Positions 1,914 to 45,601 of a stretch of 47,667 nt of DNA are shown piece after piece. The position numbers and the translations under genes are program-made. The notes below the pieces were generated by a model, which saw nothing but the letters and a program-made list of their open reading frames with translations, ran no database searches and was not told the origin of the DNA. The DNA is from Actinomycetes bacterium (GTDB lineage Bacteria > Actinomycetota > Acidimicrobiia > Acidimicrobiales > Bog-793), in assembly GCA_021803215.1 (NCBI GenBank), contig JAJZLV010000125.1:1-47667 (forward strand), given 5' to 3'. The first letter of the stretch is position 1. Every line of letters starts with the position of its first letter.

Positions 1914-4913
1914 TCAGTGAAATTTCCTCTCGATCCCAAAGACCCGAGACGACCTGAGGACTCGGCCGGCCGAGTCGAGCGCCTCAACCTCGAAGCGCCT
2001 GGCCCTCGAGGAGACGAGCATCACGCTCTGGAAGCCTCTCTTCGGGGCAGTCAGCAGCTGGCGGAACCGGCCGCCCGGTCCTTCAGCCAGCACCCGCCAG
2101 CGCGCCACCTCGGTCGCCCCGTTCCAGCTGACGTAGATCTTCGTGCGATCCCCAGCTGGCCGGGCGACCGCCCTCGGGAGGGTGAGCGGCTTTCCCACCC
2201 AATGACGGACGAGGACGGCCCGGTACGACAGGTCCGGGCCGGGCAGCTGGGCATTGAAGATCAGCTTGCCCGAATGGGTGTACTCGGTCAGCTCTGGCTG
2301 GGCCCCCCAGCCGACGAGGACGTCACCGTTCGGCAGGAGCTGGGTGCTGCCCATGTAGGCGGCGTCGAAGCTCTTCCCGTAGACGTACTGCGCCTTCAAG
2401 GTGGCGGTGTGCGTCTTGCGGTTCAGGTGGAGGACGAGGGCACGAGAGGGGGCGGTCGCTCCCACGTAGGTGCCGGCTCCGCTGATCTGGCAGCAGTGGT
2501 CGTCGAACATGGTGATGGTCGACCGACCGTTCATGACGACGTCGTGCTGCCACTCGAACATGGCCTTCTTCGGCAACTTGAACGAGGAGTGCCTGCCTCC
2601 GAGCGTCCAGACGATCTTCTTGGTCTTCACGTTGATGTCGTAAGCCGCCCAGGTGTTGCGCATCGAGACGACGAGCGTGTCCTTGTGACCGAGGCTTATC
2701 GAGTTGACGTGGTAGGCGTCCCAGGGAAAGCCGTTCGTCTGCGGGATGGCGTGCGAGGCGGAGAGCGGGATGTGGTGGAGGGCGTTCCAGCTCCAGACGA
2801 GCTTTCCTGTCTTCAAGTCGTACTTCTGGACCGCCGAGTCCGTGATGGCACCGTTCTCGGTCCCGCCGTACCTGTAGAGGTTCATCGGGATGTTCTTGTT
2901 CGCCGTCACGTAGGCGTACTTGCCCTTGATGATGAACGAATGGAGGGTGAGCACCCAGCCGTCCTGGCCCTTGATCTTGGCGATCGTCTTGTAGTGCTCG
3001 TTCACCACGATGTACTCACCGGACTCGGTCGCCCCGGTCGGGGTGATGATCCCCTGCCACCAGGAGAGGACCGGCTTGCCCTCGTAGATCTGGGCTGCCA
3101 GGTCCGAGGCGACGTACTTGGGCGGCGTCGGCCTGAACCAGATCGGTGTCAGGTTCGGCGCCAACAGGAGCGGGCCGCTCTGACCGTCCATCGGGTGGGT
3201 GGTGAGGTTGTAGAAATTGCCGACCATGACATCGCCCGGAAGCGTCTTCCGGCTGGCCGTGCCCTCCGTGACCGTGATGCGCGGGGGATGGAGATTCGGG
3301 GCCGAGACGAAGTCGTAGGCCCCCTGCTTGCTCCAAGCCCCGATCGGAGCCCCCGCGCCCCCTGCCACACCGAAGTCGAGCGAGAGGAAGGCGACGATGA
3401 GAAGGCCGACCCCGATCGGGAGGCTGAGGCGAAGCTTCGGCTGGCTGCGGGCCGGGGCGTTGTCGGTCCTCGGCATGAACAAGAACGCCACCACCAAGGC
3501 GGCAAGGACGAAGCCGGCTCCTATCAGGTATGCGAGCCGGTAGCCGTCGGTGAGGGCCACTGAGGCCACCTTGTTCTCGCCGAAGAAGTGGGTGGTGAAC
3601 TGGGTGGCGAGCGAGATGAGGAGGGCTATCCCGAGCCCGCCGCCCGATTGCCGGGCGGTGTTGACGAGGCCCGAGACGAGCCCGGCCTGCTCGGGAGCCG
3701 AGCCCTGGATGGCCGCGATCGTCGAAGGGACGATCGAAAGGCCGATGCCGGCCGCCACGAGGAGGCCGGGAAGGACGATGTAGCCGACGGCGCTGCCGCT
3801 CGGCCCGATGCGGACGAAAAGGAGCATGCCGGTGAGCATCAGCAAGAGCCCGCTGACCAGGACCGGGCGGGGCCCGAAGCGGGACACCAGCCCGCCCGCC
3901 CGGTGGGCGGAGAACATGATCAAAAGCGCCATCGGCAAGAAGGCGAGCCCGGTGGCGAGCGGCGTGAGGCCGAGCACCTGCTGGAGGTAGAGAGAGCTCA
4001 CGTACCACATGGGAAAGAGCGCTGCGCTGAACAAGAGAACGACGGCGTTCGCCACGAGCACCGGCCGGGTGAGCGAGCGGAACGGGATGAGCGGCTTTCT
4101 CGCGAGGTGGGTCTCGACGTAGCCGAAGACCCCCGACAGGACGAGTCCGCCCGCTATCGGCCCGATGGCGAGCGGGGCGAGCCAGTTCGAGTTGCCGGCG
4201 TTCACGACCCCGTAGACGATGAGGACCAACGATGCCGTGAGCAGGAGCGCCCCGAAGAGGTCGAAGTCGCTCCTCTCGCTCTCCTTCCTGCGCTCGGCCA
4301 CCACCGCGAGAGCGATGAAGGCGGCGATGATCCCGATCGGCGGGTTTATGAGAAGCACCCAGCGCCAGCCGAGGCCGGAGGTGAGCACCCCGCCGAGCAG
4401 TGTGCCGGCCGCTCCCCCGGCACCGTTCATGGCACCCCAAAGAGCGATCGCCTTGTGACGCTTCGGCCCTGCCTCGAACGAGTAGGTCACGATGGCGAGC
4501 GACGAGGCGGCCATGAGGGCCCCCGAGAGGCCTTGCACGCCGCGGGCGACGACGAGGAGAGTCTGGGTCGGCGCCATGCCGCCCGCCAGCGAGGTGAGCG
4601 AGAACAAAAGGAGGGCGGCGACGAAGAGCCGGCGCTGCCCGAAGTGGTCGCTCGCCCGGCCGCCGAACATCAAAAAGCCGGCGAAGGCGATGGCGTAGGC
4701 GTCCACCACCCACTGCAAGCCGACGGCCGAGAAGCCGAGGCTCGACTGGATGGAGGGGAGGGCGACGTTGACGATGCTCAGGTCCAAGATGACCATGAAC
4801 TGAGCCACGCAGCAGACGACGAGGAGCCAGCGGCTCCTTCCTTCGAAGCTGATCCCTCCCGCCTTGGTCTCCGGCCCGCCGCCGCCTCGGCGCTCGCCGA
4901 CTTCGGTGCTCAC
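1914..4913 (-). CDS. DHA2 (EmrB/QacA-like) MFS transporter fused to a C-terminal arylsulfotransferase (ASST)-like domain
   Basis: N-half: MVILDLSIVNVALPSI, WVVDAYAIAFAG, GGRASDHFGQRR, WRWVLLINPPIG. C-half: APNLHPP, WDAYHVNSI, WTLGG, FEWQHD, MFDD, GSTQLLPNG, YVSWNGATEV. GTG 4913 overlaps the upstream stop (GTGA). Confidence 0.9.
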   Translation of the reverse strand: MSTEVGERRGGGGPETKAGGISFEGRSRWLLVVCCVAQFMVILDLSIVNVALPSIQSSLGFSAVGLQWVVDAYAIAFAGFLMFGGRASDHFGQRRLFVAALLLFSLTSLAGGMAPTQTLLVVARGVQGLSGALMAASSLAIVTYSFEAGPKRHKAIALWGAMNGAGGAAGTLLGGVLTSGLGWRWVLLINPPIGIIAAFIALAVVAERRKESERSDFDLFGALLLTASLVLIVYGVVNAGNSNWLAPLAIGPIAGGLVLSGVFGYVETHLARKPLIPFRSLTRPVLVANAVVLLFSAALFPMWYVSSLYLQQVLGLTPLATGLAFLPMALLIMFSAHRAGGLVSRFGPRPVLVSGLLLMLTGMLLFVRIGPSGSAVGYIVLPGLLVAAGIGLSIVPSTIAAIQGSAPEQAGLVSGLVNTARQSGGGLGIALLISLATQFTTHFFGENKVASVALTDGYRLAYLIGAGFVLAALVVAFLFMPRTDNAPARSQPKLRLSLPIGVGLLIVAFLSLDFGVAGGAGAPIGAWSKQGAYDFVSAPNLHPPRITVTEGTASRKTLPGDVMVGNFYNLTTHPMDGQSGPLLLAPNLTPIWFRPTPPKYVASDLAAQIYEGKPVLSWWQGIITPTGATESGEYIVVNEHYKTIAKIKGQDGWVLTLHSFIIKGKYAYVTANKNIPMNLYRYGGTENGAITDSAVQKYDLKTGKLVWSWNALHHIPLSASHAIPQTNGFPWDAYHVNSISLGHKDTLVVSMRNTWAAYDINVKTKKIVWTLGGRHSSFKLPKKAMFEWQHDVVMNGRSTITMFDDHCCQISGAGTYVGATAPSRALVLHLNRKTHTATLKAQYVYGKSFDAAYMGSTQLLPNGDVLVGWGAQPELTEYTHSGKLIFNAQLPGPDLSYRAVLVRHWVGKPLTLPRAVARPAGDRTKIYVSWNGATEVARWRVLAEGPGGRFRQLLTAPKRGFQSVMLVSSRARRFEVEALDSAGRVLRSSRVFGIERKFH

Positions 4914-5620
4914 GAGGTCTCGGCCGCGACCTCTCCCGCTCGCCACTCCGACAGGACAGCCAGAGCGGAATCGATGATGCGATCGGCGAAGGTGGCGGAG
5001 TCGTTGACGCGGGGGAAGGGCTCCTGCGGCACGGGCAGCTCGAGGAACTCACAAAGAGGCTCCCAGCCCTCTGCCGGGTTCCAGACGAGCAGGCGGTCGG
5101 CCGGAACGGTCGCTTTCACCCCGGCGTTGTACTCCTCCATGGCGTGGGCCATGTAACCGGGATCGGCGTCGTCCGGGTCCTCCGGCATGAGCCCGCTCTT
5201 CTGCCACATAGAGCGCATCATCTCGAGGTAGCCATCCCAGGCAGGGTCGATCTTCGCCCGGGCGCTCGAGAGATCCCGCATGAGGAGGTCGCCGTAGAAC
5301 ATCCCCCAGATCGTGTCGGTCATGCTGCGCTCCCAGCTCTCGGGCTGGCGCACGCTCAACAGCACCTTGGCATCCGGGTAGAACTCGATGAGCTCCCTGT
5401 AATAGAAGGCCCCCGGCCAGTCGACGGTCGCCTGGTACCCGGCAAAGACGCTCTCGAAGTCCCCGCCGCCGCTCTCGAAGAGCGACTGCCACTTCTCTGC
5501 AAGGCTCAAGTCGCCGAGGACGTTTACCATGTGATAGCAGGGCCCGAGCCCGAGCTTTTCGAGCGCCTCTTTCTGCGACAAGGTCGCAGTGCGCGGCAGG
5601 CCGGCTCCGATCAGCTTCAT
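4910..5620 (-). CDS. Sulfotransferase family protein (Sulfotransfer_4-like, probably PAPS-dependent)
   Basis: MKLIGAGLPRTATLS, GPCYHM, ATVDWP, YPDAKVLLSVR, VPADRLLV, GWEPLCEFL, PFPRVN; RBS GGAGGGG before ATG 5620. Confidence 0.9.
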   Translation of the reverse strand: MKLIGAGLPRTATLSQKEALEKLGLGPCYHMVNVLGDLSLAEKWQSLFESGGGDFESVFAGYQATVDWPGAFYYRELIEFYPDAKVLLSVRQPESWERSMTDTIWGMFYGDLLMRDLSSARAKIDPAWDGYLEMMRSMWQKSGLMPEDPDDADPGYMAHAMEEYNAGVKATVPADRLLVWNPAEGWEPLCEFLELPVPQEPFPRVNDSATFADRIIDSALAVLSEWRAGEVAAETS

Positions 5621-5761
5621 GTGATTCCCCTCCAAGGTGTGTTGCTCCCGGACCACCATAGCGAGGCAGTCTTGCGCTGTGAAAGCCTTGAGTGCTGCCT
5701 GGGTCCGAACTGAGAGCTTCCTTGGCTTAGAGCCGCGTATACCCCTACCCTCTCAGGAGGA

Positions 5762-8734
5762 TCAGCTCACCCGCTTCCAGCTGGGAAAGCGCAGCCTCTT
5801 GGCACCGATGGCGTCGGCGCTGGCATGGCTCTTGCCGGCCCGGCCGGGGGAAAGTGGGCTCGGCGGGCTGCTGAACGGACGGCCCTTGGCCGCACCCGTC
5901 GACTTGGAGGAGGCCTTCTGCTCGGCGATGAGCTTGTGGGCTTGGCTCAGGTAACGCCCCATCACTGCGAGGTCCCTCTGCAAGGCGCCGAGCTGGAAGC
6001 CCCTCTCGGCCACGAGCGAGCGCTGGTAGGCCTGATAGGCCTTGTCGAGGTCCGCCGTCACCTTGACCGAGAGCACCGACGACGGAGAGCTGCCCACGTA
6101 GCGGACGCTCGAGCCGAAGACGGACTTGAGCGCTCCGATCAGGCTCGGGGCAAAGCGCACCTCGTTTCCGTTCAAGTCAACCGCCACGTCGGCCAGCACC
6201 GGGGGTGACCTGCTGTCCGAAGAGACGTAGATCGACTGGATGTAGATGAACGAGTCCTCGATAGGGACGAGCACAGGCGAGCCGTAGAGGACCCGGGCGT
6301 GCGCCCGGCGCAAGAGGGCGACCTGTTGCACGACCGCCCGGCTCAGCTGGAGCCGCGACGCCACCAGCGAGGGCCCGAGGGCAGAGGCCTTCACCCGGGG
6401 AAGCTCGTAGCTGATGAGCCGGCCGTAGCTCTTGTAGCCGCTCTCTGCCACGGTGAAGCCGGCCAGCTGCTCGGTCCGTCCGGTGATCGAGAAGGGGACG
6501 AGCGGCTCGACGGCGAGGAACTGGGTGTTGGTCCGCCCCGGCAGGCGCAGCATCTCGTAGGTCGGCACGTAAGGGGCGTTGCGGCTCCCCTCGGCCAGGG
6601 AGAAGGAGTTCTCGAAGCGGTAGAACTCCCTCGCGCCGGCCGCCGTCGCCTGGTAGTGGTAGCGCCCGTACATGGCCGAGAGCAGCATGAGGAGCGACCT
6701 CGAGTAGCGAAGGTGGTTCTCGAGCCCGGGAGAGAGCCGGCTCATCGCCTTGAGCGGCTCGATGAGTCCCGGGTAGACGTGCTCCCAGGCCCTCAGCACC
6801 GGGTCGCGCGGGTCGAGCGCGAAGAAGCTCAGCTTCCCGCTGTAGGCGTTCACGACCGCCACGACCGAGTTGCGGACGTAGTTGTACTGGCCCTGCAGCC
6901 CGTTGTTCGGTCCGAGCACTCCGGTGGGGGCTCCCTCTGCATAGGGGTAGGAGTCGCTCGTGGTGTAGCAGTCGACCATGAAGTAGACCTGCCCGCCCGA
7001 GACGACGGGATAGGGGTGCGAGCCAACCTTCAAAAACGGCGCCGCCTTCGCGACCCGCTGGCGGACGTTCTGCACGAACAAGATGCGTGATCTCTTGGTG
7101 ATGAGGCTCGAGTCGAGCAGGTTGAGGTCGTGAAAGCGCATGGCGAAGGCCGCCCGCTGCCAGAAGCCCGTCAACCGCACACCGCCCGAGCCGCGGTAGT
7201 GGCTCGTGACCGGACCCTTGGCCGTGGCGTAGTCGAGCTCCCTCTCTTTCGTGTCGACCACCACGTAGCTGCTGGAGCTGTCCCCGAAGTAGACGGCCGG
7301 CTGGTCTACGACCGGGGCGCCGTTCGTCGAGTTGTCCGGGATGCCGGAGATGTCATAGGTCGGGCGGCCGCTCGAGGTGACGGTGTTGGCGGGCGACATC
7401 ACGACCCCGTAGCCGTGGGTGTAGATGAGGTGCTCGGCCACCCAGCTGTGGCGCGGGACCGCCCCGCTGTCCACCTCCCTCGTGCCGATCACCACCGGAG
7501 TGAGGCTCTGGCTCCCGCCGTTCGTAAGCTGGTAGCGGTCGATCGAGAGTCCGGCCACCCGGTAGTAGCTGTGGAGCGACTGCATGGCGTCGTAGGTGGC
7601 GCTGGCCACGCTCGGGCTCCAAAGTGGCAGCTCGGCGAGCGCCGGCAGGTCGGCCTCGACCGTGCTCGCCTTCAGGTTGGGGCTGGCGTCGAAGCGGACC
7701 GCCCGAACCTGCGAGAGCCCGAAGGCCGCCCGGGTGGCGGCGATGTTCCGCTGCAGGTACGGGAGCTCGACGCTCGCCTGGGAGGGGTTCACCACCACCC
7801 ACTGCACGATGGCGGGGTAGATCATCCCGATCACGAGGGCCACGAAGGCCCAGAGGCCGACCGCCACGGCCGGCAGCGCCCAGCTGCGGTGGTAGACGTT
7901 GTAGCTGAGCAGGACGAACGAGATCATGCTCAAGATGGCGAGGATCGAGAGCGCCGGCAGGCGGACATGTACGTCGGTGTAGTCGGCCCCCACCACGAGC
8001 CCGTTCGTGGACAGCCCCAGGTCGAAGCGGTCGACGAAGAAGTAGCCGGCGGCTCTCACGAGGGCGACGATGGCGAGGATGAACGAGAGGTGGGCGGTCG
8101 CCCGGGCGTCCACCCGGGGGCTCGGCCCGCTGGTCCGGATGGCGCCGTTCAGGTAGTGGGCGACGGCCGTCACTATGAACAGCACCACGAGGGCCACGAG
8201 CGACCAGTCGACGAGGAAGGACAAGAAGGGCAGGCGGAAGACGAAAAAGCCGATGTCGCGGTGGAACTGCGGGTCCTTCACGCCGAACTTCCCGCCGTTC
8301 ATGAACAACAGCCAGTGCTGCCACTGCCCGCTGGCGCCGACTCCGACCGCCAGGGCGAGGAGGAACGAGACGACCGTGCGCAGCGCTACCCGGAAGCGCC
8401 CGATCGAGGCCCGGTAGCGGCGGGCCATCTCGTACTCGGCCGCCGAGTAGATGTCGGGCGGCGAGAGGGCGTCGGCCACGTGGAGGCTGGTCCAGCAAGA
8501 GACGAAGAAGACCCCGCTGAAGACGATCGCCAGCCCGGCCCGGGTCTCGGCCATCGACCGCCAGATCATCGAGAGGTGGACCGAGCCGAACCAGAGGTAG
8601 TTCGTGTAGGCATCGGCGATCAGCTGGACCGCCACGATGGCCAAGATGACCGCCAGGACCCCGAGGATGATCGCCAGCTGGTAGCCGCGCAGCAGGCGCG
8701 GCCGCGAGATGACGGCCTGGTCTGGGAGCCTCAC
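5762..8734 (-). CDS. UPF0182 family membrane protein
   Basis: YTNYLWF, FGVKDPQFHRDIGFFVFRLPF, GADYTDVHVRLP, HLIYTHGYG, YTTSDSYPY, YNYVRNSV; start placed at GTG 8734. Confidence 0.92.
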   Translation of the reverse strand: MRLPDQAVISRPRLLRGYQLAIILGVLAVILAIVAVQLIADAYTNYLWFGSVHLSMIWRSMAETRAGLAIVFSGVFFVSCWTSLHVADALSPPDIYSAAEYEMARRYRASIGRFRVALRTVVSFLLALAVGVGASGQWQHWLLFMNGGKFGVKDPQFHRDIGFFVFRLPFLSFLVDWSLVALVVLFIVTAVAHYLNGAIRTSGPSPRVDARATAHLSFILAIVALVRAAGYFFVDRFDLGLSTNGLVVGADYTDVHVRLPALSILAILSMISFVLLSYNVYHRSWALPAVAVGLWAFVALVIGMIYPAIVQWVVVNPSQASVELPYLQRNIAATRAAFGLSQVRAVRFDASPNLKASTVEADLPALAELPLWSPSVASATYDAMQSLHSYYRVAGLSIDRYQLTNGGSQSLTPVVIGTREVDSGAVPRHSWVAEHLIYTHGYGVVMSPANTVTSSGRPTYDISGIPDNSTNGAPVVDQPAVYFGDSSSSYVVVDTKERELDYATAKGPVTSHYRGSGGVRLTGFWQRAAFAMRFHDLNLLDSSLITKRSRILFVQNVRQRVAKAAPFLKVGSHPYPVVSGGQVYFMVDCYTTSDSYPYAEGAPTGVLGPNNGLQGQYNYVRNSVVAVVNAYSGKLSFFALDPRDPVLRAWEHVYPGLIEPLKAMSRLSPGLENHLRYSRSLLMLLSAMYGRYHYQATAAGAREFYRFENSFSLAEGSRNAPYVPTYEMLRLPGRTNTQFLAVEPLVPFSITGRTEQLAGFTVAESGYKSYGRLISYELPRVKASALGPSLVASRLQLSRAVVQQVALLRRAHARVLYGSPVLVPIEDSFIYIQSIYVSSDSRSPPVLADVAVDLNGNEVRFAPSLIGALKSVFGSSVRYVGSSPSSVLSVKVTADLDKAYQAYQRSLVAERGFQLGALQRDLAVMGRYLSQAHKLIAEQKASSKSTGAAKGRPFSSPPSPLSPGRAGKSHASADAIGAKRLRFPSWKRVS

Positions 8735-8744
8735 CGGAGAAAGG

Positions 8745-10742
8745 CTACGAGGTGGCGGGCACCAACAGGCAGCGGCAGCCGGGATGGACGGGCGGGTGCA
8801 GCTGGCCGGTCGGGAACTCCTCTCCGACCGCCACCGGCCCGGCGAGGGCGTTGTCGTCGCAGTCCGGGCAGGGCTGCCCATCGTCGTCGACCACCCAGCG
8901 GGCCGCCGTGCCGGCCCCTCCCGCCACGGCGCCCTTCGAGAAGGACTTGACGGCGAAGTCGCCGGCCGCCTGCTCGACCCTCTTTCGCCGCCACTCCCGG
9001 TAGGAGGCTCCGGCTGCCTCGGTGGCTCCCTCGGAGAGGTCGCTCACCTCTTCGAGGGCCTCCTCTAGGCGGTGGCGCAGCAGCCCGCTCACCTCGGCCG
9101 CCAGCTCGGAGGCGATCTCGCTCCCGGCGCTGGCAGGCGAGCCGTCGGCCGGCTCGGCTCCGGAGAGCCAGCGGTGCCCGAGACTCCAGGCGTCGGCCAA
9201 GAGCTTGGCCGTCGCCTCTTCGATCCTCGAGCGCTGGGCCTCTGCGGGGAGAAGCTTTTCCAGCTCGGGCCGGCCGGAGGAATGCCGGATGGCGTCGAGG
9301 AGGAGGTTCTGGTCGTCTTGCAGGGCCCGCTTCAAGGCTCGCGAGAGCCTGCCGGTGACCGGCCCGAGCAGCTCGGCTCGCCGGGTGAGAGCCGCCTCGT
9401 CGTCGCTCGGGAGCTCTTCGGCCTCGGCCGCGCCCGGCGCCACCGGGGTCTCGGCCCCCGCCTTGCCGGCCTCGTCGAGCTCGACCGGCGGGAGCTCGTC
9501 GCTCTCGCGGACGTCCGCCTCGTGGGCCGAGTGGATCCCGAGCACACCCTCGCCTGGGAGCTCCCCCTCGCTCGCTGGCCGGCCCGGCCGCCCCTTTCTC
9601 CTCGCCGGGCTGGTCGGCTCGGCGGCCTTCAGATCAGGCCCTATCTCGTCGGAGGGCTGTCCGGCCGGCTCCGGGCCGGCCGCGGCCTCCTTCCGCCCCG
9701 GCTCTCCACCGAGAGGGGTCGGCTCGGCCAGAGCCGCCTCGCCGCCCGGCTCTCCTCCGGGCTCGGCCTCGTTCTCTCTCCGGTCGGCTCGGATGCGGGC
9801 GAAGAGCTCCTCGACACTTCTCCGTGAGCTGAGGTGGTCCTCTTCGGTCGACTCCTCCTCCGAGTCCGCCTCCTCGTAGCTCTCCGCCCCGGCAGGCTCT
9901 CTCGGGCGGACCGCCTCGGAGAGCTCCTCTGCTGCCTCGAGCCCGAGAGCTCCCTCTGCGAGCAGGCCCTCGTCGGCGCCGACCACCGCCTCGAGGTCGG
10001 AGTCGTCGGAGCTCTGCTCGGCCGCCTCGCCGGCAGCCGCCGCCGCCACCCGGGCGTCGTGCTCGGCGCTCGCCACCCGCTCAAGCAGCTCCCCGACGGC
10101 CGAGCCGACCGACTCGACCACCTCGATGAGGAAGTCCCGCCCGGCCCGCAGCTCCTCGAGCTGCACCCGGAGGCCCCGGCGCTTCTCGGCGAGATCTCCG
10201 AGGATCTCTCCCCGAAGCGCCTTCGCCTCGCGCACGATCCGGCGGCACTCCGCCTTGGTCGCCTGCAAGAGGGAGACCGCCTCCTGGCGGGCCGACTCGG
10301 TGACCGCCTCGGCCTCGAGCTGCGAGGCCTCGATGATGGCGGTCGCCTCCGCCTCGGCCGCCTCCTGGCGAGAGGCCAGGACCGACTCGGCCGCTCCGAC
10401 TATCTCGGCCGCCCTCGCCTCGGCCTTCGCCACCACCTCCTGGGCGGCGTCGTGGGCCGCCTGCAGGATCTTGGCCGTCTCGACTCCGACCGCCCTCATC
10501 AAGGTGGCCTCGTCCAGCTCGGGCTCGGCCGCCCGGCGCTCGGCCTCCGCCACCTTGCGGCGGAGCGCCTGCTCTCTGTCGAGCATCTCCCGCACCTCGC
10601 CGGCGAGCGCCTGCAGGTACTGGCGGACGGCCTCTTGCTCGAAGCCGCGCCGGCCGGCCGGGAAGGAGTGCCGGGAGATCTCCTCCGGGTGAAAACCCGT
10701 GCGGGTGCTGATCGCCACCATCAATGGCTCTTCGGGCGTCAT
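8745..10742 (-). CDS. DivIVA-domain coiled-coil protein with C-terminal Cys/His motif
   Basis: N-terminal HPEEISRHSFPAGRRGFEQEAVRQYL resembles DivIVA; Ala/Glu coiled coil; C-terminal CPDC...HPPVHPGCRC. Confidence 0.8.
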   Translation of the reverse strand: MTPEEPLMVAISTRTGFHPEEISRHSFPAGRRGFEQEAVRQYLQALAGEVREMLDREQALRRKVAEAERRAAEPELDEATLMRAVGVETAKILQAAHDAAQEVVAKAEARAAEIVGAAESVLASRQEAAEAEATAIIEASQLEAEAVTESARQEAVSLLQATKAECRRIVREAKALRGEILGDLAEKRRGLRVQLEELRAGRDFLIEVVESVGSAVGELLERVASAEHDARVAAAAAGEAAEQSSDDSDLEAVVGADEGLLAEGALGLEAAEELSEAVRPREPAGAESYEEADSEEESTEEDHLSSRRSVEELFARIRADRRENEAEPGGEPGGEAALAEPTPLGGEPGRKEAAAGPEPAGQPSDEIGPDLKAAEPTSPARRKGRPGRPASEGELPGEGVLGIHSAHEADVRESDELPPVELDEAGKAGAETPVAPGAAEAEELPSDDEAALTRRAELLGPVTGRLSRALKRALQDDQNLLLDAIRHSSGRPELEKLLPAEAQRSRIEEATAKLLADAWSLGHRWLSGAEPADGSPASAGSEIASELAAEVSGLLRHRLEEALEEVSDLSEGATEAAGASYREWRRKRVEQAAGDFAVKSFSKGAVAGGAGTAARWVVDDDGQPCPDCDDNALAGPVAVGEEFPTGQLHPPVHPGCRCLLVPATS

Positions 10743-31191: not shown

Positions 31192-31645
31192 GCGCCGCTC
31201 TGGGCGCAGCGCTCGGGGTTGACGGAGATAATGAGCCTGGCGGCCTCGCGCCACGCCACCCCGTCGCCCGATCCGTTGTCAACGACGAAGAATCGGAATG
31301 GATCCAGCACAGGCGAGATACTGCCACAGCCGAGGGTCGTAATCTGACAGACGGGGTGCACCACGCACTTGTCGCGCTTGATCGACCATTTGTTCATCGC
31401 TGTCGGAATGGAGTTGGCCTTGGAGAACCATCACCTTGTGGTCCGACACCCCCAAGCCGTCCGGAAAGGCAAGGCAGCCAACCCGTGCGTTCCGGTCGAG
31501 CATGTCTTGCCGCACGAACGGCGCCGGGGCTCAGATCCCTGAATCAACCCACATTCATGCCGGGAGGCCCATAATTGGCACTGGCGGCCCACCCACGGTA
31601 GCCTCTGTCCTCGGACCACGCAGCAACTCGTGGGAGGGGGGAATA

Positions 31646-32623
31646 GTGCCATTACCGAAGGATGCGCGCATCTTCGTCGCCGGGCATGCCGGTCTGGTCG
31701 GATCTGCGGTGCTCCGGAAACTCAAGGCTGAGGGCTACACAACTCTCCTCGTCGCTCGGCGCGACCAGCTTGATTTGCGCGACCAGGCGGCGGTCAACTA
31801 CTGGTTCCGGGCCAACCGACCCGAGTACGTGTATCTCGTGGCAGGCACGGTCGGTGGCATCATGGCCAACTCCACCCGGCCCGCGGAGTTCCTCTACGAC
31901 AACATGATGATCCACGGCACCGTGGTCCATGCGTCCTACCTCTACGACGTGACGAAGCTGTTGTACCTCGGCAGCTCGTGCATCTACCCCCGTCAAGCCA
32001 CCCAGCCGATCACGGAGGACCAGCTGCTCACGGGTCCGCTGGAGACGACCAACGAGGCCTACGCCCTGGCGAAGATCGCCGGCATAAAGTTGTGCTCGTC
32101 CTACCGCGCGCAGTACGGCAGCAATTTCATCTCGGCGATGCCGACCAACTTGTACGGTCCGAATGACAACTTCGACCTCAACAGCAGCCACGTTCTCCCC
32201 GCTCTGATCCGCAAGTTCCACGACGCGAAGACGAGCTCGAGGACGCAGGTCGAGATCTGGGGAACGGGCAGCGCCATGCGGGAGTTTCTACACGTCGACG
32301 ACCTCGCCGATGCTTGCCTGTTCCTCATGGAGCACTACGAAGAGCCGGACCACATCAACATAGGCACTGGCGACGATCGCAGCATCCGGGCGCTGGCAGA
32401 GCTCGTCCGCGACATCGTGTACCCCGCGGCCGAGCTGGCGTTTGACACGAGTAAGCCCGATGGCACGCCGCGCAAGGTGCTCGACGTCTCCAAGCTCCGC
32501 TCGCTCGGCTGGTCGCCCACGATCGGCCTGGAGGACGGCATCCGCTCCACCTACCAGTGGTTCCTCAGCGCGTTGCAAACTGACGAGGTGAGAGGGCGAG
32601 AAGCGGTCCCCGCCGCGACGTGA
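31646..32623 (+). CDS. fcl: GDP-L-fucose synthase
   Basis: AGHAGLVGSA, VGGIMAN, LGSSCIYP, YALAK, MPTNLYGPNDNF, SHVLPALIRK, REFLHVDD, KPDGTPRK; RBS GGAGG before GTG 31646. Confidence 0.95.
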   Translation: MPLPKDARIFVAGHAGLVGSAVLRKLKAEGYTTLLVARRDQLDLRDQAAVNYWFRANRPEYVYLVAGTVGGIMANSTRPAEFLYDNMMIHGTVVHASYLYDVTKLLYLGSSCIYPRQATQPITEDQLLTGPLETTNEAYALAKIAGIKLCSSYRAQYGSNFISAMPTNLYGPNDNFDLNSSHVLPALIRKFHDAKTSSRTQVEIWGTGSAMREFLHVDDLADACLFLMEHYEEPDHINIGTGDDRSIRALAELVRDIVYPAAELAFDTSKPDGTPRKVLDVSKLRSLGWSPTIGLEDGIRSTYQWFLSALQTDEVRGREAVPAAT

Positions 32624-33333
32624 CCACGTCATCGAGCTCGATCCGCTATGCGAATGGTCGGGTCAAGCGGGCCTTCGACTTGACAGCCGGCGTGGCGCTG
32701 AGCATCGTGACCGCGCCAATAATCTTGCTGCTCGCCGTCGGGTCGGCTGTGAGCTTCCGAGCCTGGCCCCTGTTCGTGCAAGAGCGCCTCGGTCGAGGCG
32801 GGCGTACGTTCTGCTTCCTAAAGCTGCGCTCGCTGCCGACAGACACCCCGACCGACGTTGACAAGGTCGCGATCACCACCATCACAAACACCCGGTGGGG
32901 CGAGTTCCTCCGCTCGTCCCACCTCGACGAGTTGCCCCAGTGCTGGCTGGTCGTCACGGGCCGCATGAGCCTGGTCGGTCCCCGGCCTGAGATGCCGGCC
33001 CTGGCGGCTACGTACGACGCCGCCTTCGTGGAGGAACGCCTGGCGGTGCGCCCCGGCATCACCGGCCCGTGGCAGGTGAGCACGGCGGCTTCGGGGCTGA
33101 TCGGCGAAGCACCCGAGCTCGACCGCCTCTACCTGGCCCATGCCGGGCCGCGGCTCGACGGCTGGGTATTGTTGCGGACCGTCGGCGGACTTGTCGGCTT
33201 GCAGCGGTTACCTCTTGATCGCTTCCCCGCGTGGGCTTGCAACGGTCCAGCCCCTACTGGTGCGCCGATACCAGATGTCGCCGTCGCCGGACAAGTGGAA
33301 GACGTTATACGGCCGCCGGAATACTCGTCGTGA
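32620..33333 (+). CDS. Priming sugar transferase (phosphoglycosyl transferase)
   Basis: KRAFD, FVQERLG, KLRS, LDELPQ, GRMSLVGPRP, RPGITGPWQV. Confidence 0.92.
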   Translation: MTTSSSSIRYANGRVKRAFDLTAGVALSIVTAPIILLLAVGSAVSFRAWPLFVQERLGRGGRTFCFLKLRSLPTDTPTDVDKVAITTITNTRWGEFLRSSHLDELPQCWLVVTGRMSLVGPRPEMPALAATYDAAFVEERLAVRPGITGPWQVSTAASGLIGEAPELDRLYLAHAGPRLDGWVLLRTVGGLVGLQRLPLDRFPAWACNGPAPTGAPIPDVAVAGQVEDVIRPPEYSS

Positions 33334-34124
33334 GCGACACTCGGGGCCTCTCCGCGGGCACGAAGGGCTGTACACCCTCGTTCACCTGCTGCTCAGTGCG
33401 CATCGACGCCCACACACTCGAGTCGGCCGTTGACGCGCTGCTTACGCGGCCCGATCCGCGCGAGGGCCGGTCCGTCCACCTGTGCAACGCCTACACCTTG
33501 TCATTGGCCCGGCGCGACCTCGAGTTGCGCCGTCGCCTCAACCAAGGCAGCCTCAACTTGCCCGACGGCATGCCGCTGATCTGGGTGGGCCGGCGTCTCG
33601 GCCTCGACTACCTGGAGGGTCGTGTCTACGGGCCCGATCTGATGATCGCTGCTATGGACCGCGGTCGAGAGATCGGTCTGCGTCACTACCTGCATGGCTC
33701 CACTGACGCGGTACTGATGGAGCTCGAGGCCGAGCTGCTGCGGCGCCTGCCCGGGGTTCACATCGTGGGGCGGGACGCGCCACCCTTCCGCGAACCCACT
33801 GCCGACGAGCAGTCCGCGCTCGAGCAGCGCTTGGTCAACCTTGGACCCGACATCGTGTGGGTGGGTCTCGGGACACCGAAACAGGACGCGTTCGTCCACC
33901 ACTTCCGCCACCGGGTCCCGTCGACTTTCGTGGGTGTGGGCGCGGCGTTTGACTTCATCTCCGGGGCCAAGCGTCAGGCGCCGGTGTGGATGCAGAAGCG
34001 GGGCCTCGAGTGGGCGTACCGCCTGGCCCGCGAGCCACGGAGGCTGGGGAGGCGTTACCTCATCGGCAACGCCCGCTTCGTGACCGGCATAGTATGCGAG
34101 CGCCCGAAGGTCGAGGTGCCGTAG
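33330..34124 (+). CDS. WecB/TagA/CpsF family glycosyltransferase
   Basis: PDGMPL, RVYGPDL, VWVGLGTPKQ, GVGAAFDF, QAPVWMQKRGLEWAYRL, EPRRL. Confidence 0.93.
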   Translation: MSDTRGLSAGTKGCTPSFTCCSVRIDAHTLESAVDALLTRPDPREGRSVHLCNAYTLSLARRDLELRRRLNQGSLNLPDGMPLIWVGRRLGLDYLEGRVYGPDLMIAAMDRGREIGLRHYLHGSTDAVLMELEAELLRRLPGVHIVGRDAPPFREPTADEQSALEQRLVNLGPDIVWVGLGTPKQDAFVHHFRHRVPSTFVGVGAAFDFISGAKRQAPVWMQKRGLEWAYRLAREPRRLGRRYLIGNARFVTGIVCERPKVEVP

Positions 34125-34143
34125 TGGCGACGGATGGTCACCG

Positions 34144-34971
34144 GTGGATGTAAGAAAGCGGGTGAAGCGGAGTTCGCTCGCTCCTCTTGCGGCCTTTGCA
34201 AGCCGGGCGCGGACAGTAACGAGCTATGAGTGGCGCCAGGCCAGGCGATCCTGGGCGTGGCTCATCGGTTCCCACGAGTACACCAACTTCACCTACGAGC
34301 TGACCACCGAGAACGTCGTCGAGATGGCTTGGTTCGTGTCGGCAGTGACCGGACTTGGGTTCGACGACTCCTTCGGGTACATCGAGGAGCTTCACAACGA
34401 CCAGGCCTTGCTCGATCACCTCCGCCGTGCTGTCGCCGATTCGCCACTGCGCCGCGTCATGGATCCTGAGCCGCGTTACGGACGTCGAGCCGCTTGGTAC
34501 GCAATCGTTCGGGCTATGCGCCCGCAGCACGTCGTGGAAACCGGGGTCGACAAGGGACTCGGCTCCTGTGTGTTTGCCGCCGCGCTGCTCCGTAACGCGG
34601 ACGAGGGTCACCGTGGCCGCTTGACCGCGCACGACATCAACCGGGATGCCGGCGCGCTGATCGGCGGGGAGTACGCATCGGTCATCGACCTTCGCTTTGG
34701 CGACTCGATCACGATGCTGGCTGGGTCCGCCACACCGGTCGACTTGTTCCTCCATGACAGCGACCATCGATACGAGCATGAATCCGCCGAGTACCGAGCC
34801 GTCGCGGGGTCTCTCACTGAGAGTGCACTCGTCATGACCGACCATGGCGGCCCAGCCCTGAGCGACTTCGCCAGGGCCAGCGGTCGGCGCTTCTTGGCGT
34901 TCCGAGAGGATCCGGCTGATCACTGGGCGCCCGGAGGCGTACTCGGTGTGGCCATGCATGTGGCGACGTAA
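34144..34971 (+). CDS. Class I SAM-dependent methyltransferase
   Basis: VVETGVDKGLGS, GDS, VDLFLHDSDHRY. Confidence 0.85.
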   Translation: MDVRKRVKRSSLAPLAAFASRARTVTSYEWRQARRSWAWLIGSHEYTNFTYELTTENVVEMAWFVSAVTGLGFDDSFGYIEELHNDQALLDHLRRAVADSPLRRVMDPEPRYGRRAAWYAIVRAMRPQHVVETGVDKGLGSCVFAAALLRNADEGHRGRLTAHDINRDAGALIGGEYASVIDLRFGDSITMLAGSATPVDLFLHDSDHRYEHESAEYRAVAGSLTESALVMTDHGGPALSDFARASGRRFLAFREDPADHWAPGGVLGVAMHVAT

Positions 34972-35017
34972 TGCTTGACGAACGGGCCCACCGCCCGTCA
35001 AGCATCGGGGTGCCGGC

Positions 35018-37009
35018 ATGAGAGTCCTCGTGGTGCACAATCGCTACCGCGCCGCGCTCCCCTCGGGCGAGAACATGGTCGTCGACCGGGACGTCGCCAT
35101 GCTTCGCGACGCTGGCGTCGAGGTCGACACCTACATCCGCGACAGCGACGAGATCGAGCACTTTGGACCCGTCAAGCGGGCGGGACTGGCGGTACGACCG
35201 ATCTACTCCCTCGAAGATGCCAAGGCGTTCAAAGCGCGGATCCAGTCGTTCGGCCCCGACGTGGTGCACCTGCACAATCCCTACCCGTTGATCTCGCCGG
35301 CGATCATCCGAGTGGCGAAGGCAGAGGGTGTGCCGGTGATACAGACCGTGCACAATTACCGCTTCGCCTGTGCAAACGGCCTGTACTTCCGGGACGGCCG
35401 CGTGTGCCAGGACTGCCTCGGCAAGCGGGCGCCCTGGCCGGCTGTGTGGCACGGCTGCTACCGGGGCTCAATGACACAAAGCGGCATCATGGCGAGCTCG
35501 CTGGCCGTACATCGACGCACCTGGCAGATGGTCGATCGCTTCCTGGCGGTGAGCGAGTTCCTGGCGGAGCAGCTCGTGGCAGCGGGGGTGCCGCCGGGGA
35601 AGATCACGGTGAAGCCCAATGCCGCGCCCGACCCAGGGGAGCCGGAACCGATCGGCGAGGGGTTCCTCTTCGCCGGGCGACTTGCCGTGGAGAAGGGTAT
35701 CAACCTCCTACTTGAAGCCTGGCGCCTGTCGAACCTCGGTGGAGCGACGACTCTGACCATCGTCGGCGATGGCCCGGAGCACAACACTGTCCAGCAGGCA
35801 GCGCACATCGACCCAAGCATCAGCTATCTCGGATCGGTGACCAGCGACCGGATCGGTCAACTGCTCGAAGACTGCGCCGTTCGGGTCGCCCCGTCGCTCT
35901 GGTTCGAGGCCCAACCGCTGGCGGTCATCGAGTCGTACGCGAGGGGTCGGCCGGTCATTTCGACGAGCGTGGGCGCCAACGCCGGTGTCGTGAGTGACGA
36001 GGTCGGTTGGATCTGTCCGACGACGAGTGCCGTCGATCTGGCAGAGACGATCCGGCACGCGTTCGGAGACCACAGCGGCACACGCGTCCGCGGCATGGCT
36101 GCCCGATCGCTGTACGAGCGCTCGTATCGCCCTAGTGAGGCGACCCGATCCCTACTCGAGATCTACCACGGGCTCGAACGGGTGACGGCTTGCAGCACTG
36201 GCAACCCTTTTCTGAGTGGCGATCGCCTCTACGGTGAGGACCTCAGCGACGAGGAGACCGCCAGGTGGGTGGCCGATGAGCGCGAAGCTTACGCCGAGCT
36301 CGGACCGGGAGAGCTGCCCGCCGAGTCGTACCGGCGAGGCTACTTCGACCACTTCCACGGAGTGAGCCGCCTGCCTGACGGCCGGTTCAAGAGCGTGCTC
36401 GGCCTCGGGAGCGCACAGGGCGGCGAGTTCCTGGCGATCATCGACCGCATCGACGAGCTGACGATCGTCGAACCCTCACGGAAGCTGCGATCGGACCGCC
36501 TCGGTGGCTTGCAGCCCCGCTACGTCGACCCGAGCCCTGACGCGGCCCTCCCGTTCCCCGAGGCCTCGTTCGACCTCGTGTTCTGTCTTAGCGTGCTGCA
36601 CCACATCCCCAAGGTCTCGGCCCAGGTTCGCGAACTGGCTCGAGTACTCTCTCCTGGGGGGTACATGCTGGTTCTTGAGCCGATCGTGTCCCTCGGCGAT
36701 TGGACCGGTCCCCGCAAGGCGGGGCTGACCAAACGTGAGCGCGGCATCCCCCTCTCGCTCCTTCGCTCCATGCTCACCGATGAGGGTCTGGTGATCGAGT
36801 ACGAGGCACTGTGCGACTTCCCGATCACACGACGTCTGCCCCGCGGCTACGACTCTGTCTGGTCGGTTCAGCTCGATCGTCTGCTGTCGCAAGCTACCGC
36901 CTGGAACTACCGCTACCACCCCACGTCTGCGATCCAGAAGCTCCGTCCGACCGGCTCGTTCTTCGTGGTGACCAAACCAAACTCGCCGGCCTCGGTCTCC
37001 GTACCATGA
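35018..37009 (+). CDS. GT4 glycosyltransferase fused to a class I SAM methyltransferase
   Basis: N: MRVLVVHNRY, SGE, VVHLHN, TVHNYR, FAGRLAVEKG, PSLWFE. C: VLGLGSAQG, LPFPEASFDLV, VLHHIP, RVLSPGG. Confidence 0.88.
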   Translation: MRVLVVHNRYRAALPSGENMVVDRDVAMLRDAGVEVDTYIRDSDEIEHFGPVKRAGLAVRPIYSLEDAKAFKARIQSFGPDVVHLHNPYPLISPAIIRVAKAEGVPVIQTVHNYRFACANGLYFRDGRVCQDCLGKRAPWPAVWHGCYRGSMTQSGIMASSLAVHRRTWQMVDRFLAVSEFLAEQLVAAGVPPGKITVKPNAAPDPGEPEPIGEGFLFAGRLAVEKGINLLLEAWRLSNLGGATTLTIVGDGPEHNTVQQAAHIDPSISYLGSVTSDRIGQLLEDCAVRVAPSLWFEAQPLAVIESYARGRPVISTSVGANAGVVSDEVGWICPTTSAVDLAETIRHAFGDHSGTRVRGMAARSLYERSYRPSEATRSLLEIYHGLERVTACSTGNPFLSGDRLYGEDLSDEETARWVADEREAYAELGPGELPAESYRRGYFDHFHGVSRLPDGRFKSVLGLGSAQGGEFLAIIDRIDELTIVEPSRKLRSDRLGGLQPRYVDPSPDAALPFPEASFDLVFCLSVLHHIPKVSAQVRELARVLSPGGYMLVLEPIVSLGDWTGPRKAGLTKRERGIPLSLLRSMLTDEGLVIEYEALCDFPITRRLPRGYDSVWSVQLDRLLSQATAWNYRYHPTSAIQKLRPTGSFFVVTKPNSPASVSVP

Positions 37010-38184
37010 GGGTGCTCCTCGTGCTCGGCTACAGCCTCCCGACCCAGCAGGCCCTCTGGGAGGAGGTGTCGCGGCGAGACGTCGACCTGCACGTGGCTTA
37101 CACGCTTGATATCCCCCAAAGCGGAGAGGTCGGCCCACCCGAGTTCGGGACAAGACATGAGCTAGCGGGTGTCCGGGTCCGCGGGGACCGCCTCACCTGG
37201 ATGGGCTACCGGGGACTCAGCAGGCTCATCAAGGAACTCCGACCCGATCTCGTTCATGTCCTCAACGAGCCGTGGTCAGTGGTGGTCCTCCAAGCCCTCC
37301 ATGCACGAGCTCGTCATGTGGTGACCCACGGCTGCGAGAACCTATGGGACCAGGGAGGACCTCTCGAATACAGGGCGCGACGTCATGTCACCCGGCGTAA
37401 TCTCCGCCGCACGAGTGGATTCGTCTCCTGGAACAGCGAGGGAGTCACTTGGGCTCGGCGCAGAGGACTACCACCGCCCAGTCCGGCGATCGTCCTCTGC
37501 GCCGAGCTACCTCGACTCGATCACTTCAACCATCCCGAACGGCGACGTGCGGCAGGCCGAGAACGATGGGGATTCGACCAGGAGTTCGTCTTCGGATATG
37601 TCGGGCGACTCGTCTCTGAAAAGGGACTCGACTGGCTGCTGGACTCGTGGAGAGCTGCCAATCTGCCTGATCACGCCCGTCTGGTATTCGTCGGGGGAGG
37701 GCCGATGGAAGCCGCGATCCGCTTTGCCGCGGCCGCCGACGCACGGATCCGGCTCATCGGCCCGGTACCGTTGGGCCAAGTTCCCACAGTGATGGCCTCA
37801 CTCGATGCGCTAATTCTGCCTTCGCTGACAACGCGAGATTGGCGTGAGCAGTACGGGCGGGTGATCACGGAAGCCATGGCATCAGGGGTACCTGTGATTG
37901 CCAGTGATTCCGGCGCCATTCCCGAAGTCGTCGGAGATGCCGGCATCATAGTCGGCGAGCGATCGACAGCAGAGCTCGCCGCGGAACTCCGGCGAGTGAG
38001 CCTCGATCAGGCATTGCACCGCTCGCTCGCGGCAGCCGGCGTGGCGCGGGCACAGACGACCTTTTCACCCGCACTCGGGGCTGACCGCCTGCTTGGTTTG
38101 TGGGCGGCGGTAGCGGAGGATATCGGTACCGTGACGCACACTGCCGGCAATGCTCGCTCGACATCGGCCGGCGAAGAGTTATGA
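37006..38184 (+). CDS. GT4 glycosyltransferase
   Basis: GYVGRLVSEKG, LPSLTT, WREQYGRVITEAMASGVPVIASDSGAIPEVVGDAG; ATGA coupling. Confidence 0.92.
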   Translation: MRVLLVLGYSLPTQQALWEEVSRRDVDLHVAYTLDIPQSGEVGPPEFGTRHELAGVRVRGDRLTWMGYRGLSRLIKELRPDLVHVLNEPWSVVVLQALHARARHVVTHGCENLWDQGGPLEYRARRHVTRRNLRRTSGFVSWNSEGVTWARRRGLPPPSPAIVLCAELPRLDHFNHPERRRAAGRERWGFDQEFVFGYVGRLVSEKGLDWLLDSWRAANLPDHARLVFVGGGPMEAAIRFAAAADARIRLIGPVPLGQVPTVMASLDALILPSLTTRDWREQYGRVITEAMASGVPVIASDSGAIPEVVGDAGIIVGERSTAELAAELRRVSLDQALHRSLAAAGVARAQTTFSPALGADRLLGLWAAVAEDIGTVTHTAGNARSTSAGEEL

Positions 38185-38303
38185 GCGACCCGAATCCTTT
38201 CAACCTCCCAGCCGTCGCTGGCGCCACGAGAAGCGGCTTCAAGCGACTCTGCGCTACCCGGCTGTACTCGTGTCCAGTGGACGCCCTTCGATGCCGATGA
38301 AGC

Positions 38304-42192: not shown

Positions 42193-42236
42193 CGAGGTGG
42201 TAATACGGCGTCCGGTCTTCCCCTGAACGAGAGGGA

Positions 42237-42572: not shown

Positions 42573-42644
42573 CCTTGAGGGGGCGAGACCGTCCCGTACT
42601 CGCGGCGCCGATGCGACCACCTATCCCAGTTCGCCGGCCTGGGG

Positions 42645-43291: not shown

Positions 43292-43300
43292 TTCTCACCC

Positions 43301-45108: not shown

Positions 45109-45114
45109 GCCATG

Positions 45115-45583: not shown

Positions 45584-45601
45584 TCCGCTGGTCACCGGAC
45601 T

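Follow-up and report, generated by a model that had tools for sequence, protein, structure and literature searches.

A conserved transporter–arylsulfotransferase fusion protein of uncultured Actinomycetota and its possible role in sulfation outside the cytoplasmic membrane

How can a bacterium attach sulfate to molecules that lie outside its cytoplasmic membrane? The donor of activated sulfate, 3′-phosphoadenosine-5′-phosphosulfate (PAPS), does not leave the cytoplasm, and to our knowledge both the way in which bacteria sulfate outside the membrane and the natural donors of secreted arylsulfate sulfotransferases (ASSTs) are largely open questions. They are raised by a stretch of 47,667 nucleotides (nt) from an Actinomycetes bacterium of the order Acidimicrobiales (assembly GCA_021803215.1, contig JAJZLV010000125.1, positions 1 to 47,667; hereafter the window), in which a major facilitator superfamily (MFS) transporter and an ASST domain are joined in one polypeptide, and in which the gene for this fusion overlaps with that of a predicted PAPS-dependent sulfotransferase. 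The two overlapping genes could work together as a unit that sulfates outside the cytoplasmic membrane by way of a sulfate relay, a reading that our analysis leaves evenly balanced between right and wrong.

A single-chain fusion of an MFS transporter and an arylsulfotransferase

An uninterrupted frame of 999 amino acids (aa) had been reported in the initial annotation of this locus, which named no strand, and the frame was recovered on the minus strand, starting from the GTG at 4913. The open reading frame (ORF) listing gives a longer version, 1914–4946 (−), with 1010 aa from another GTG. The start at 4913 is preferred because a 4-nt overlap between the stop codon of the upstream gene and the start codon of the fusion, GTGA in the window, recurs as ATGA in 8 of the 14 related loci; the candidate start at 4946 was rejected, as the conserved overlap sits at 4913. 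All the strings highlighted by the initial annotation are present as well, namely the hydrophobic stretch LSLPIGVGLLIVAFLSLDFGVAGG at residues 496–519, YHVNS at 734–738, WQHD at 788–791 and the pair CC at 807–808. Its proposal that a 14-helix DHA2-like MFS transporter and an ASST share a single chain agrees with the Pfam matches (MFS_1 at residues 35–428, 8e-52; Arylsulfotran_2 at 608–889, 4e-40; Arylsulfotrans at 693–873, 7e-12) and with the AlphaFold2 model built on 60 homologues (predicted local distance difference test, pLDDT, 83.6; predicted template modelling score, pTM, 0.80), where the 14 helices in residues 25–479 are followed by a 15th at 492–516 and then by an all-beta domain at 547–994 (Table 1).

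The fusion is a genuine and conserved protein. In a collection of 5.8 billion proteins, 2028 of the 7999 scored candidates matched it at E ≤ 0.001, and all 120 listed matches, 964–1105 aa long, carry PF07690, PF14269 and PF05935 together; one cluster among them is 99% identical to the query, the remainder 58–67%. Their database names are "MFS transporter" or "EmrB/QacA". Clustering at 50% reduces the family to essentially one full-length representative (P0122, 1021 aa), around which 913 ASST relatives were found at E ≤ 1e-30 and 7019 at E ≤ 0.001. In a collection of species genomes at least 599 stretches were matched, and a relative of the query was confirmed in at least 569 species genomes. 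The best 80 genome loci, all from metagenome-assembled genomes (MAGs) of Actinomycetota (Solirubrobacterales, Acidimicrobiales, Gaiellaceae and Thermoleophilia), match it from residues 1–30 to 986–999, with the exception of L034, which reaches a contig end. Furthermore, contigs of four other public sequencing runs were aligned to 1914–5659. The contig of run X6, which belongs to the same study as the likely source runs, covers the entire segment and differs from it by 3 substitutions and by a gap of 2 nt at 5637, and that of run X8, from another study, covers 2842–4852 with 2 substitutions and 0 gaps; no indel inside the fusion frame occurs in the contigs of these four runs. An assembly or frameshift artefact was rejected on account of the 120 database matches, the 80 genome loci and the contigs of the other runs. 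The initial annotation had allowed for a fusion confined to one genome, with a stop at the junction; what was found instead is a fusion spread over many genomes, with neither stop nor indel at the junction in the contigs of the other runs.

The distribution of the family is patchy. In the order of the Solirubrobacteraceae MAG that holds locus L002, 20 of 201 sampled genomes match at E ≤ 1e-180, 17 of them at full length, and in the order of the window the fusion occurs in 2 of 201 genomes, the window's own (G000) and G643, with two copies in the latter. None of the 3 other genomes of the family to which the window's genome belongs has it, and in an even sample of the phylum (401 genomes), the whole span of the query was matched only in G000 among the 150 best matches listed. 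The tallies include genomes flagged as unpublished, that is, G487 among the 20 above, G082 and G318 among the 42 with PF17784 given below, and several further ones in the 401-genome sample, on which only counts rest. The two copies in G643, the sole other fusion genome found in the window's order, are both of full length (L094 and L095; 59% and 58% identical). Runs holding the stretch come from mine drainage, tailings and sediment, and no RNA run is listed among them; the MAGs of relatives come from peat and soil. Other architectures, for example a different N-terminal partner or a tandem ASST, are possibly represented in G546, where the enzyme part (C1:3059153–3060634, minus strand; query 494–993, 56% identity) lies in a 1101-aa frame without a match to the MFS part, and by P0124 (1006 aa), in which the enzyme domain is matched in two stretches.

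As regards the transporter part, family models and the structural model strongly support the prediction of a DHA2-like proton-coupled exporter with 14 helices. Among NCBIfam models, efflux_EmrB (TIGR00711), which describes DHA2 transporters, scores best, with 214.9 bits against a cut-off of 230.2, and a Foldseek search returned EfpA (TM-score 0.82–0.84 at 29–30% identity) as well as QacA and EmrB. We use the name "DHA2-like" because TIGR00711 scores best and the nearest folds are DHA2 pumps, yet the cut-off is missed. All 60 homologues have D44, D89, R124, G164, G167, G170, G174 and G175 in common, and we take these residues to be the helix 1 Asp, the motif of loop 2–3, the helix 4 Arg and the Gly-rich helix 5. 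Identity among the loci amounts to 61–73% for the MFS halves and 52–62% for the enzyme halves. A pair of unfused ancestors was not seen: around the 6 closest MFS-only loci (46–51% identity), there is no ASST, Cpz8-like or polyketide synthase (PKS) gene within ~8 kb.

The initial annotation had further proposed a 15th helix that places the enzyme outside the cell. The helix was recovered in the AlphaFold2 model, so that the number of helices is 15 and not even, and the same place is hydrophobic in 59 of the 60 aligned homologues, judged by a 19-residue window with a Kyte-Doolittle mean ≥1.6 (2.15 in the window protein); its sequence is not itself conserved among them, only the hydrophobicity being kept. 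An odd number of helices should put the enzyme outside, and the signal peptides of stand-alone paralogues and the distribution of lysine and arginine lend this placement further support. With loops delimited by the modelled helices, the window protein has 24 lysine and arginine residues on the predicted inside versus 4 outside, and the means over 60 homologues are 19.2 versus 4.4, with the inside exceeding the outside in 60 of 60. The loop that precedes helix 15 is basic, having 4 such residues in the window protein and, on average over the 60 homologues, 3.5, compared with 0.6 aspartate plus glutamate residues. A small-x-small tripeptide follows the helix in 44 of 60 homologues, and in 20 of 60 it reads AFA.

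In the closest secreted paralogue (L016:11228–12757, minus strand, 42% identical), an ordinary signal peptide occupies the position of helix 15, and the motif GA..T.GA.SFVSAP is common to this paralogue, where it comes after the signal peptide, and to the fusions, where it comes after helix 15 and the small-x-small tripeptide. Two other PF14269 proteins of the window's genome begin with twin-arginine translocation (Tat)-type signals, one of them with a lipobox, and the stand-alone ASST paralogues found beside fusions have an N-terminal hydrophobic signal or anchor. We infer from these comparisons that the ASST was formerly a protein of its own, secreted, whose signal peptide has been kept as helix 15, an origin that would give the helix an inside-to-outside direction. 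A cytoplasmic location of the enzyme domain was rejected in view of the basic loop, helix 15, the signal peptides of the paralogues and the lysine and arginine counts. A position of the enzyme part on the outer face of the membrane is strongly supported, either tethered or released by signal peptidase, and the predicted cleavage site leaves the possibility that it may still be cut loose. The initial annotation had also suggested channelling, with the enzyme docked at the transporter exit, which would be a conjecture for now: complex predictions for the MFS part (1–520) against the enzyme part (521–999), run three times without controls, gave 0.65, 0.01 and 0.01 and speak neither for nor against it. 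The two stand-alone PF14269 sulfotransferases with Tat-type signals, 532 and 517 aa long, are located on contigs C17 and C41 of G000 (L081:1045–2643, plus strand, and L082:1171–2724, minus strand).

Concerning the enzyme domain, sequence comparison strongly supports a Cpz4-like PAPS-independent sulfotransferase with the catalytic His, Arg and His in place. PF14269 is matched with 138.4 bits against a curated cut-off of 27, and the nearest solved relative is Cpz4 (9kf4/9kf6), which phmmer finds at E = 3.8e-72 (458 of 478 residues), a profile built from 24 ASST domains, both fused and stand-alone, at E = 1.2e-148, and Foldseek with a TM-score of 0.92/0.89, a root mean square deviation of 2.6–3.1 Å and 31–32% identity. 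The same profile reaches E. coli AssT (3elq) at E = 0.0026, with H735, R752 and H790 aligned to positions 356, 374 and 436, so that the alignment of histidines with this enzyme, which the initial annotation had put forward as a check, does pair His735 and His790 with positions 356 and 436. His356 and Arg374 of E. coli AssT are presumably active-site residues. For His436 of E. coli AssT, the available part of a preprint describes a transiently sulfated residue that acts as sulfuryl carrier (bioRxiv 10.64898/2026.10.08.757636). None of the residues H735, R752, H790, H658, D732, N737, E877 and R898 varies among the 24 ASSTs compared, fused and stand-alone alike. In 59 of 60 fusion homologues, the ASST part contains no cysteines other than the vicinal ones at 807 and 808. 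The two closest of the secreted paralogues share the pair, the other stand-alone ASSTs in the alignment have a deletion there and Cpz4 has Ala-Ala; a vicinal disulfide outside the cell is possible at this place. Inside the region coding for the enzyme domain, the content of guanine and cytosine at positions 2501–3000 is 0.594, versus 0.64–0.71 in the other 500-base windows up to 9000.

Table 1. Features of the two-gene unit and of its products (positions in the window).
Feature	Position	Strand	Basis
Fusion gene, DHA2-like MFS transporter + helix 15 + Cpz4-like ASST domain	1914–4913	−	ORF, Pfam, AlphaFold2
Predicted MFS transporter part, residues 25–479, 14 helices	3477–4841	−	AlphaFold2 helices, Foldseek, TIGR00711
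Short basic loop joining helices 14 and 15 (residues 480–491), predicted cytoplasmic	3441–3476	−	Lysine and arginine counts
Helix 15, residues 492–516, putative signal anchor or fossil signal peptide	3366–3440	−	AlphaFold2, Kyte-Doolittle
Predicted PAPS-independent ASST domain, residues 523–994, beta-propeller and C-terminal beta domain	1932–3347	−	phmmer, profile, Foldseek
His735 (YHVNS) to Arg752	2658–2711	−	Profile alignment to E. coli AssT positions 356 and 374
His790 (WQHD)	2544–2546	−	Profile alignment to E. coli AssT His436 (3elq)
Vicinal Cys807-Cys808	2490–2495	−	Homologue alignment
GTGA overlap, stop of Cpz8-like gene/start of fusion gene	4910–4913	−	Sequence
Predicted Cpz8-like PAPS-dependent sulfotransferase gene (Sulfotransfer_4), 236 aa, ATG 5620	4910–5620	−	Pfam, phmmer, Foldseek
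Promoter-like TTCACA-17-TATGGT upstream of the two-gene unit	5655–5683	−	Consensus scan, pattern match only

The upstream gene and the comparative context

The gene that overlaps with the fusion gene is predicted, with strong support from sequence and model, to encode a cytoplasmic Cpz8-like PAPS-dependent sulfotransferase. Its product matches PF17784 at E = 1.9e-61 (208.1 bits against a cut-off of 22.8), and phmmer relates it to Cpz8 (9kf1, 8.9e-42) and SgdX2 (8y9p, 5.3e-42). In the Foldseek search with its model (pLDDT 89.1), the first two ranks are taken by Cpz8 (9kf2 with 3′-phosphoadenosine-5′-phosphate, PAP, and 9kf1), with a TM-score of 0.89 and 38–39% identity. G18, G20, P22, R23, T24 and T26 are invariant in 25 of 25 sequences, and the gene is the sole PF17784 match in the window's genome. 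Translation is placed at 5620 because GGAGGGG lies 8 nt upstream, homologues begin at MKLIGAG and the 2-nt gap at 5637 falls upstream of this start. The longest ORF, starting at 5659, was rejected in view of the ribosome-binding site ahead of 5620, the starts of the homologues and the −10 box of the promoter-like site, which overlaps 5659. The two bases at 5637 are missing from the contigs of runs X6 and X9, where their absence would break the ORF from 5659, upstream of 5620. The promoter consensus scan found 1 site versus 0.3 expected. Judging by the overlap, the Cpz8-like gene and the fusion gene are probably translationally coupled.

Neighbouring genes were surveyed by tblastn and with Pfam names at 81 loci (the best 80 and the window), over ~8 kb on each side. 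Genes for Cpz8-like proteins were found nearby in 20 of the 81 loci and type III PKS genes in 7, accompanied by genes that act in PAPS metabolism, namely adenosine 5′-phosphosulfate (APS) kinase in 8, CysD in 5, CysN in 3 and a CysQ-like phosphatase in 4, as well as by sulfatases in 26 and further secreted ASST paralogues in 60. A typical order is CysQ-like > Cpz8-like > fusion > ASST (L001), another PKS <> Cpz8-like > ASST > fusion > ASST (L029 and L075). In a FastTree phylogeny of 80 fusions, which leaves out L026 and in which L053 is a suspect long branch, 13 of the 14 copies with a Cpz8-like gene directly upstream, including that of the window, constitute one clade of 13 rows (support 98), and the copies from Solirubrobacterales constitute a second clade of 64 rows (support 99). 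The window's copy sits in the Acidimicrobiales-type clade, with the Cpz8-like gene directly upstream. In L002, L004 and 24 other loci of the Solirubrobacterales clade, same-strand arrays comprise up to four further ASST genes of 600–690 aa; the ASSTs of these arrays have an extra N-terminal domain of ~150–250 residues without a Pfam match, and a sulfatase (PF00884) is often nearby.

Among 30 Solirubrobacterales-type fusion genomes without a nearby Cpz8-like gene, 29 hold PF17784 elsewhere, versus 42 of the 401 genomes of the even phylum sample, a contrast that is inflated by kinship since, of the 41 genomes with PF17784 in this sample besides G000, 25 belong to a single family (f25). Type III PKS genes occur in 15 of these 30 fusion genomes. 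According to the coordinates of the 15 genes, 11 are within 1.6 kb of a Cpz8-like gene, 3 lie beside the fusion and 1 is near neither. Of six distal Cpz8-like loci, 2 abut CysD/CysN or APS kinase genes. For the supply of PAPS in the window's genome, there is an APS kinase gene on contig C114.

A proposed sulfate relay and its alternatives

In the relay, the Cpz8-like enzyme would move sulfate from PAPS to a small phenolic or pyrone carrier in the cytoplasm, and the MFS part would export the carrier sulfate. The ASST domain on the outside would then load the sulfuryl group on His790 and hand it on to an extracytoplasmic acceptor, which may belong to the envelope or be a secreted metabolite or a phenol from the environment, whereupon the free carrier could diffuse back. 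If this is true, an activated sulfate donor is supplied where PAPS is not available. In the strictly vectorial form of the relay, an aryl or pyrone sulfate is made inside, pumped out and spent by the outside His-sulfuryl enzyme, with the carrier cycling across the membrane; we regard this form as tentative and a little short of an even chance. Were it correct, it would represent an undescribed supply of activated sulfate to the envelope or the surroundings, with a logic resembling that of the lipid-linked donors for glycosylation outside the membrane. A fully fused form of such a relay would then be seen in a Thermoleophilia MAG (L042:7248–10904, plus strand), where a 1218-aa frame contains Sulfotransfer_4 at residues 17–221, MFS_1 at 266–659 and Arylsulfotran_2 at 833–1114. 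At its junction the stop/start overlap of the sister loci is replaced by different sequence with indels, and this triple fusion may be real or an assembly error.

Several observations speak against the relay. Cpz4 acts inside the cell, without a signal peptide, and the chemistry therefore needs no export. The direction of transport is not readable from the sequence. Sulfatases in 26 of 81 loci and secreted ASSTs in 60 of 81 fit extracellular processing of organosulfates equally well, and the small-x-small site after helix 15 (44 of 60 homologues) would allow release of the enzyme. The window's genome, at 95.5% completeness, yielded no type III PKS gene, and among the genomes of the window's clade just 1 of 13 has one, so that the source of the carrier is missing exactly where the coupling of the genes is tightest. 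To this are added the effect of kinship on the PF17784 contrast and the single occurrence of the triple fusion, as a search among proteins of 669–2132 aa returned 0 further ones that join Sulfotransfer_4, MFS and ASST.

It is also conceivable, if unlikely, that the MFS part exports an unsulfated metabolite or xenobiotic, which the tethered ASST sulfates on exit at the expense of aryl sulfates from the outside, such as the organosulfates of soil, sediment or mine water, the Cpz8-like enzyme serving to make a different sulfated compound. ASSTs are reported to take many phenols as acceptors and simple aryl sulfates as donors, as far as the available portion of a review goes (PMC13426309), and the abundance of secreted ASST paralogues (60 of 81 loci) and sulfatases (26 of 81) together with the lack of any carrier synthase found in the window's genome would suit this explanation. 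It leaves unexplained, however, the conserved 4-nt overlap with the Cpz8-like gene, the adjoining genes for PAPS synthesis, CysQ-like proteins and type III PKSs, and the retention of PF17784 in 29 of 30 fusion genomes. The same sulfatase neighbours and arrays of secreted ASSTs, in habitats where sulfate and organosulfur abound (mine drainage, tailings and sediment, with relatives in peat and soil), are compatible with sulfur scavenging in the reverse direction, where outside ASSTs would load the carrier from aryl sulfates and the MFS part would import the carrier sulfate. PAPS-dependent aryl sulfotransferases are reversible, so that inside the cell the Cpz8-like enzyme could run backwards (carrier sulfate + PAP to PAPS), or else a sulfatase could free the sulfate. 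This appears quite improbable: the nearest solved MFS relatives EfpA, QacA and EmrB are exporters, the APS kinase, CysDN and CysQ-like neighbours indicate that PAPS is made and PAP removed, which is the forward direction, and no sulfatase adjoins the fusion in the window or among the neighbours listed for the clade of 13 rows.

Alternatively, the fusion could be a polyprotein for co-delivery, in which signal peptidase cuts helix 15, the ASST becomes free and secreted, and the joint chain only ensures synthesis and insertion in a 1:1 ratio. A cleaved signal would fit the basic loop and the hydrophobic core, as well as the small-x-small tripeptide that 44 of 60 homologues have (20 of 60 as AFA). 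It would also fit the closest secreted paralogue, where a normal signal peptide stands ahead of the GA..T.GA.SFVSAP motif shared with the fusions. On the other hand, the cleavage motif is permissive and Ala-rich helix ends are common; moreover, the fusion is kept across at least 80 species genomes, though separate genes would serve equally well without coupling. We consider this rather unlikely; a cleaved polyprotein would be compatible with the sulfate relay, but it would exclude channelling from transporter to enzyme. Finally, the TIGR00711 score just below the curated cut-off could be taken to mean that the MFS part has decayed into a membrane anchor that no longer transports. This is the least probable of the alternatives and very hard to reconcile with the MFS_1 match of 8e-52 over the full profile, the 14 well-modelled helices, the invariance, throughout the 60 homologues, of D44, D89, R124 and the Gly-rich helix 5, and MFS halves (61–73%) at least as conserved as the enzyme halves (52–62%). 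The invariant residues and the identity of the MFS halves therefore indicate a pump part under constraint and not a decayed anchor.

Surroundings of the unit and comparison with known systems

The remaining part of the window that was annotated, up to position 29923, comprises UPF0182, DivIVA, MreB, proteases and succinate dehydrogenase-like genes, and no biosynthetic cluster was recognised among these neighbours; from 31382 to 47297 the analysis covered the listing of ORFs. At the contig start, ~1.8 kb downstream of the fusion gene, there is a tRNA-Met (CAT) gene at 8–84 (−), which could lie at the border of an island, considering also how patchily the fusion is distributed. It is followed by a small ORF with a cyclic-nucleotide-binding domain at 438–857 (+; 6.9e-16) and by ~1 kb (858–1913) without any ORF that has a Pfam match or a strong codon-position GC bias. 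On the other side, the longest ORFs of the UPF0182 gene (5762–8881, minus strand, 728 bits) and of the DivIVA-domain gene (8745–10742, minus strand) overlap by 137 nt, and the true start of UPF0182 is probably further downstream.

The closest parallel to the proposed sulfate relay is the two-step sulfation of caprazamycin, in which, according to the parts of the reports available, pyrones are made by the type III PKS Cpz6 and sulfated by Cpz8 at the expense of PAPS, and Cpz4 then transfers the sulfate to the antibiotic (PMC4257720, PMC4924298). The final acceptor in the cpz cluster is a liponucleoside. Cpz4 of Streptomyces sp. (PDB 9KF4, 9KF6) has PF14269 and the conserved H..N, R and QH positions in common with the domain of the window, but it is a stand-alone, cytoplasmic protein of 472 residues without signal peptide or membrane part, and its PDB chain starts ~13 residues before the domain. 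The domain of the window, in contrast, follows 15 membrane helices, should be outside and has Cys-Cys where Cpz4 has Ala-Ala. Likewise, Cpz8 (9KF1, 9KF2) and SgdX2 (8Y9P) are Sulfotransfer_4 proteins like the product of the upstream gene, and Cpz8 is paired with an ASST in the cpz cluster, as described in the available part of the report (PMC4257720). The gene of the window differs in that it appears to be translationally coupled to a transporter–ASST fusion, and no Cpz6-like type III PKS was found in its genome.

With the exporter–ASST protein, the Cpz8-like loader and the links, in relatives, to genes for PAPS and carrier synthesis, the proposed relay can be tested directly, using three proteins. 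Members of the family are common among uncultured Actinomycetota of soil, peat, sediment and mine water and may therefore matter for the cycling of organic sulfur. Enzymes that sulfate without PAPS, and their natural donors, are also wanted as biocatalysts. In a 2026 review, natural acceptors and physiological roles are described as unknown for most ASSTs (PMC13426309), and the words "MFS" and "transmembrane" do not appear in that review; no description of a transporter–ASST fusion was found in the literature searched.

E. coli AssT (3ELQ, 4P05; PF05935) is, like the domain of the window, a beta-propeller located outside the cytoplasm (Foldseek rank 38), but it is soluble and periplasmic, with a cleaved signal peptide and no transporter, and the relationship is distant (E = 0.0026). 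On the transporter side, EfpA (8UFD, 8X6X), QacA (7Y58) and EmrB (8ZAL) match the MFS part in fold and helix count (TM-score 0.78–0.84, 20–30% identity), and none of them has the 15th helix and the enzyme domain of the fusion. The parts are accordingly known already, that is, the DHA2 pump, the Cpz4-type ASST, the Cpz8-type loader and the two-step relay, whereas their arrangement is new in the literature searched. New as well are the Cpz8-like gene with its apparent coupling, the presence of PAPS and PKS genes alongside in relatives, the division of the family into two clades and the probable origin of helix 15 from a signal peptide.

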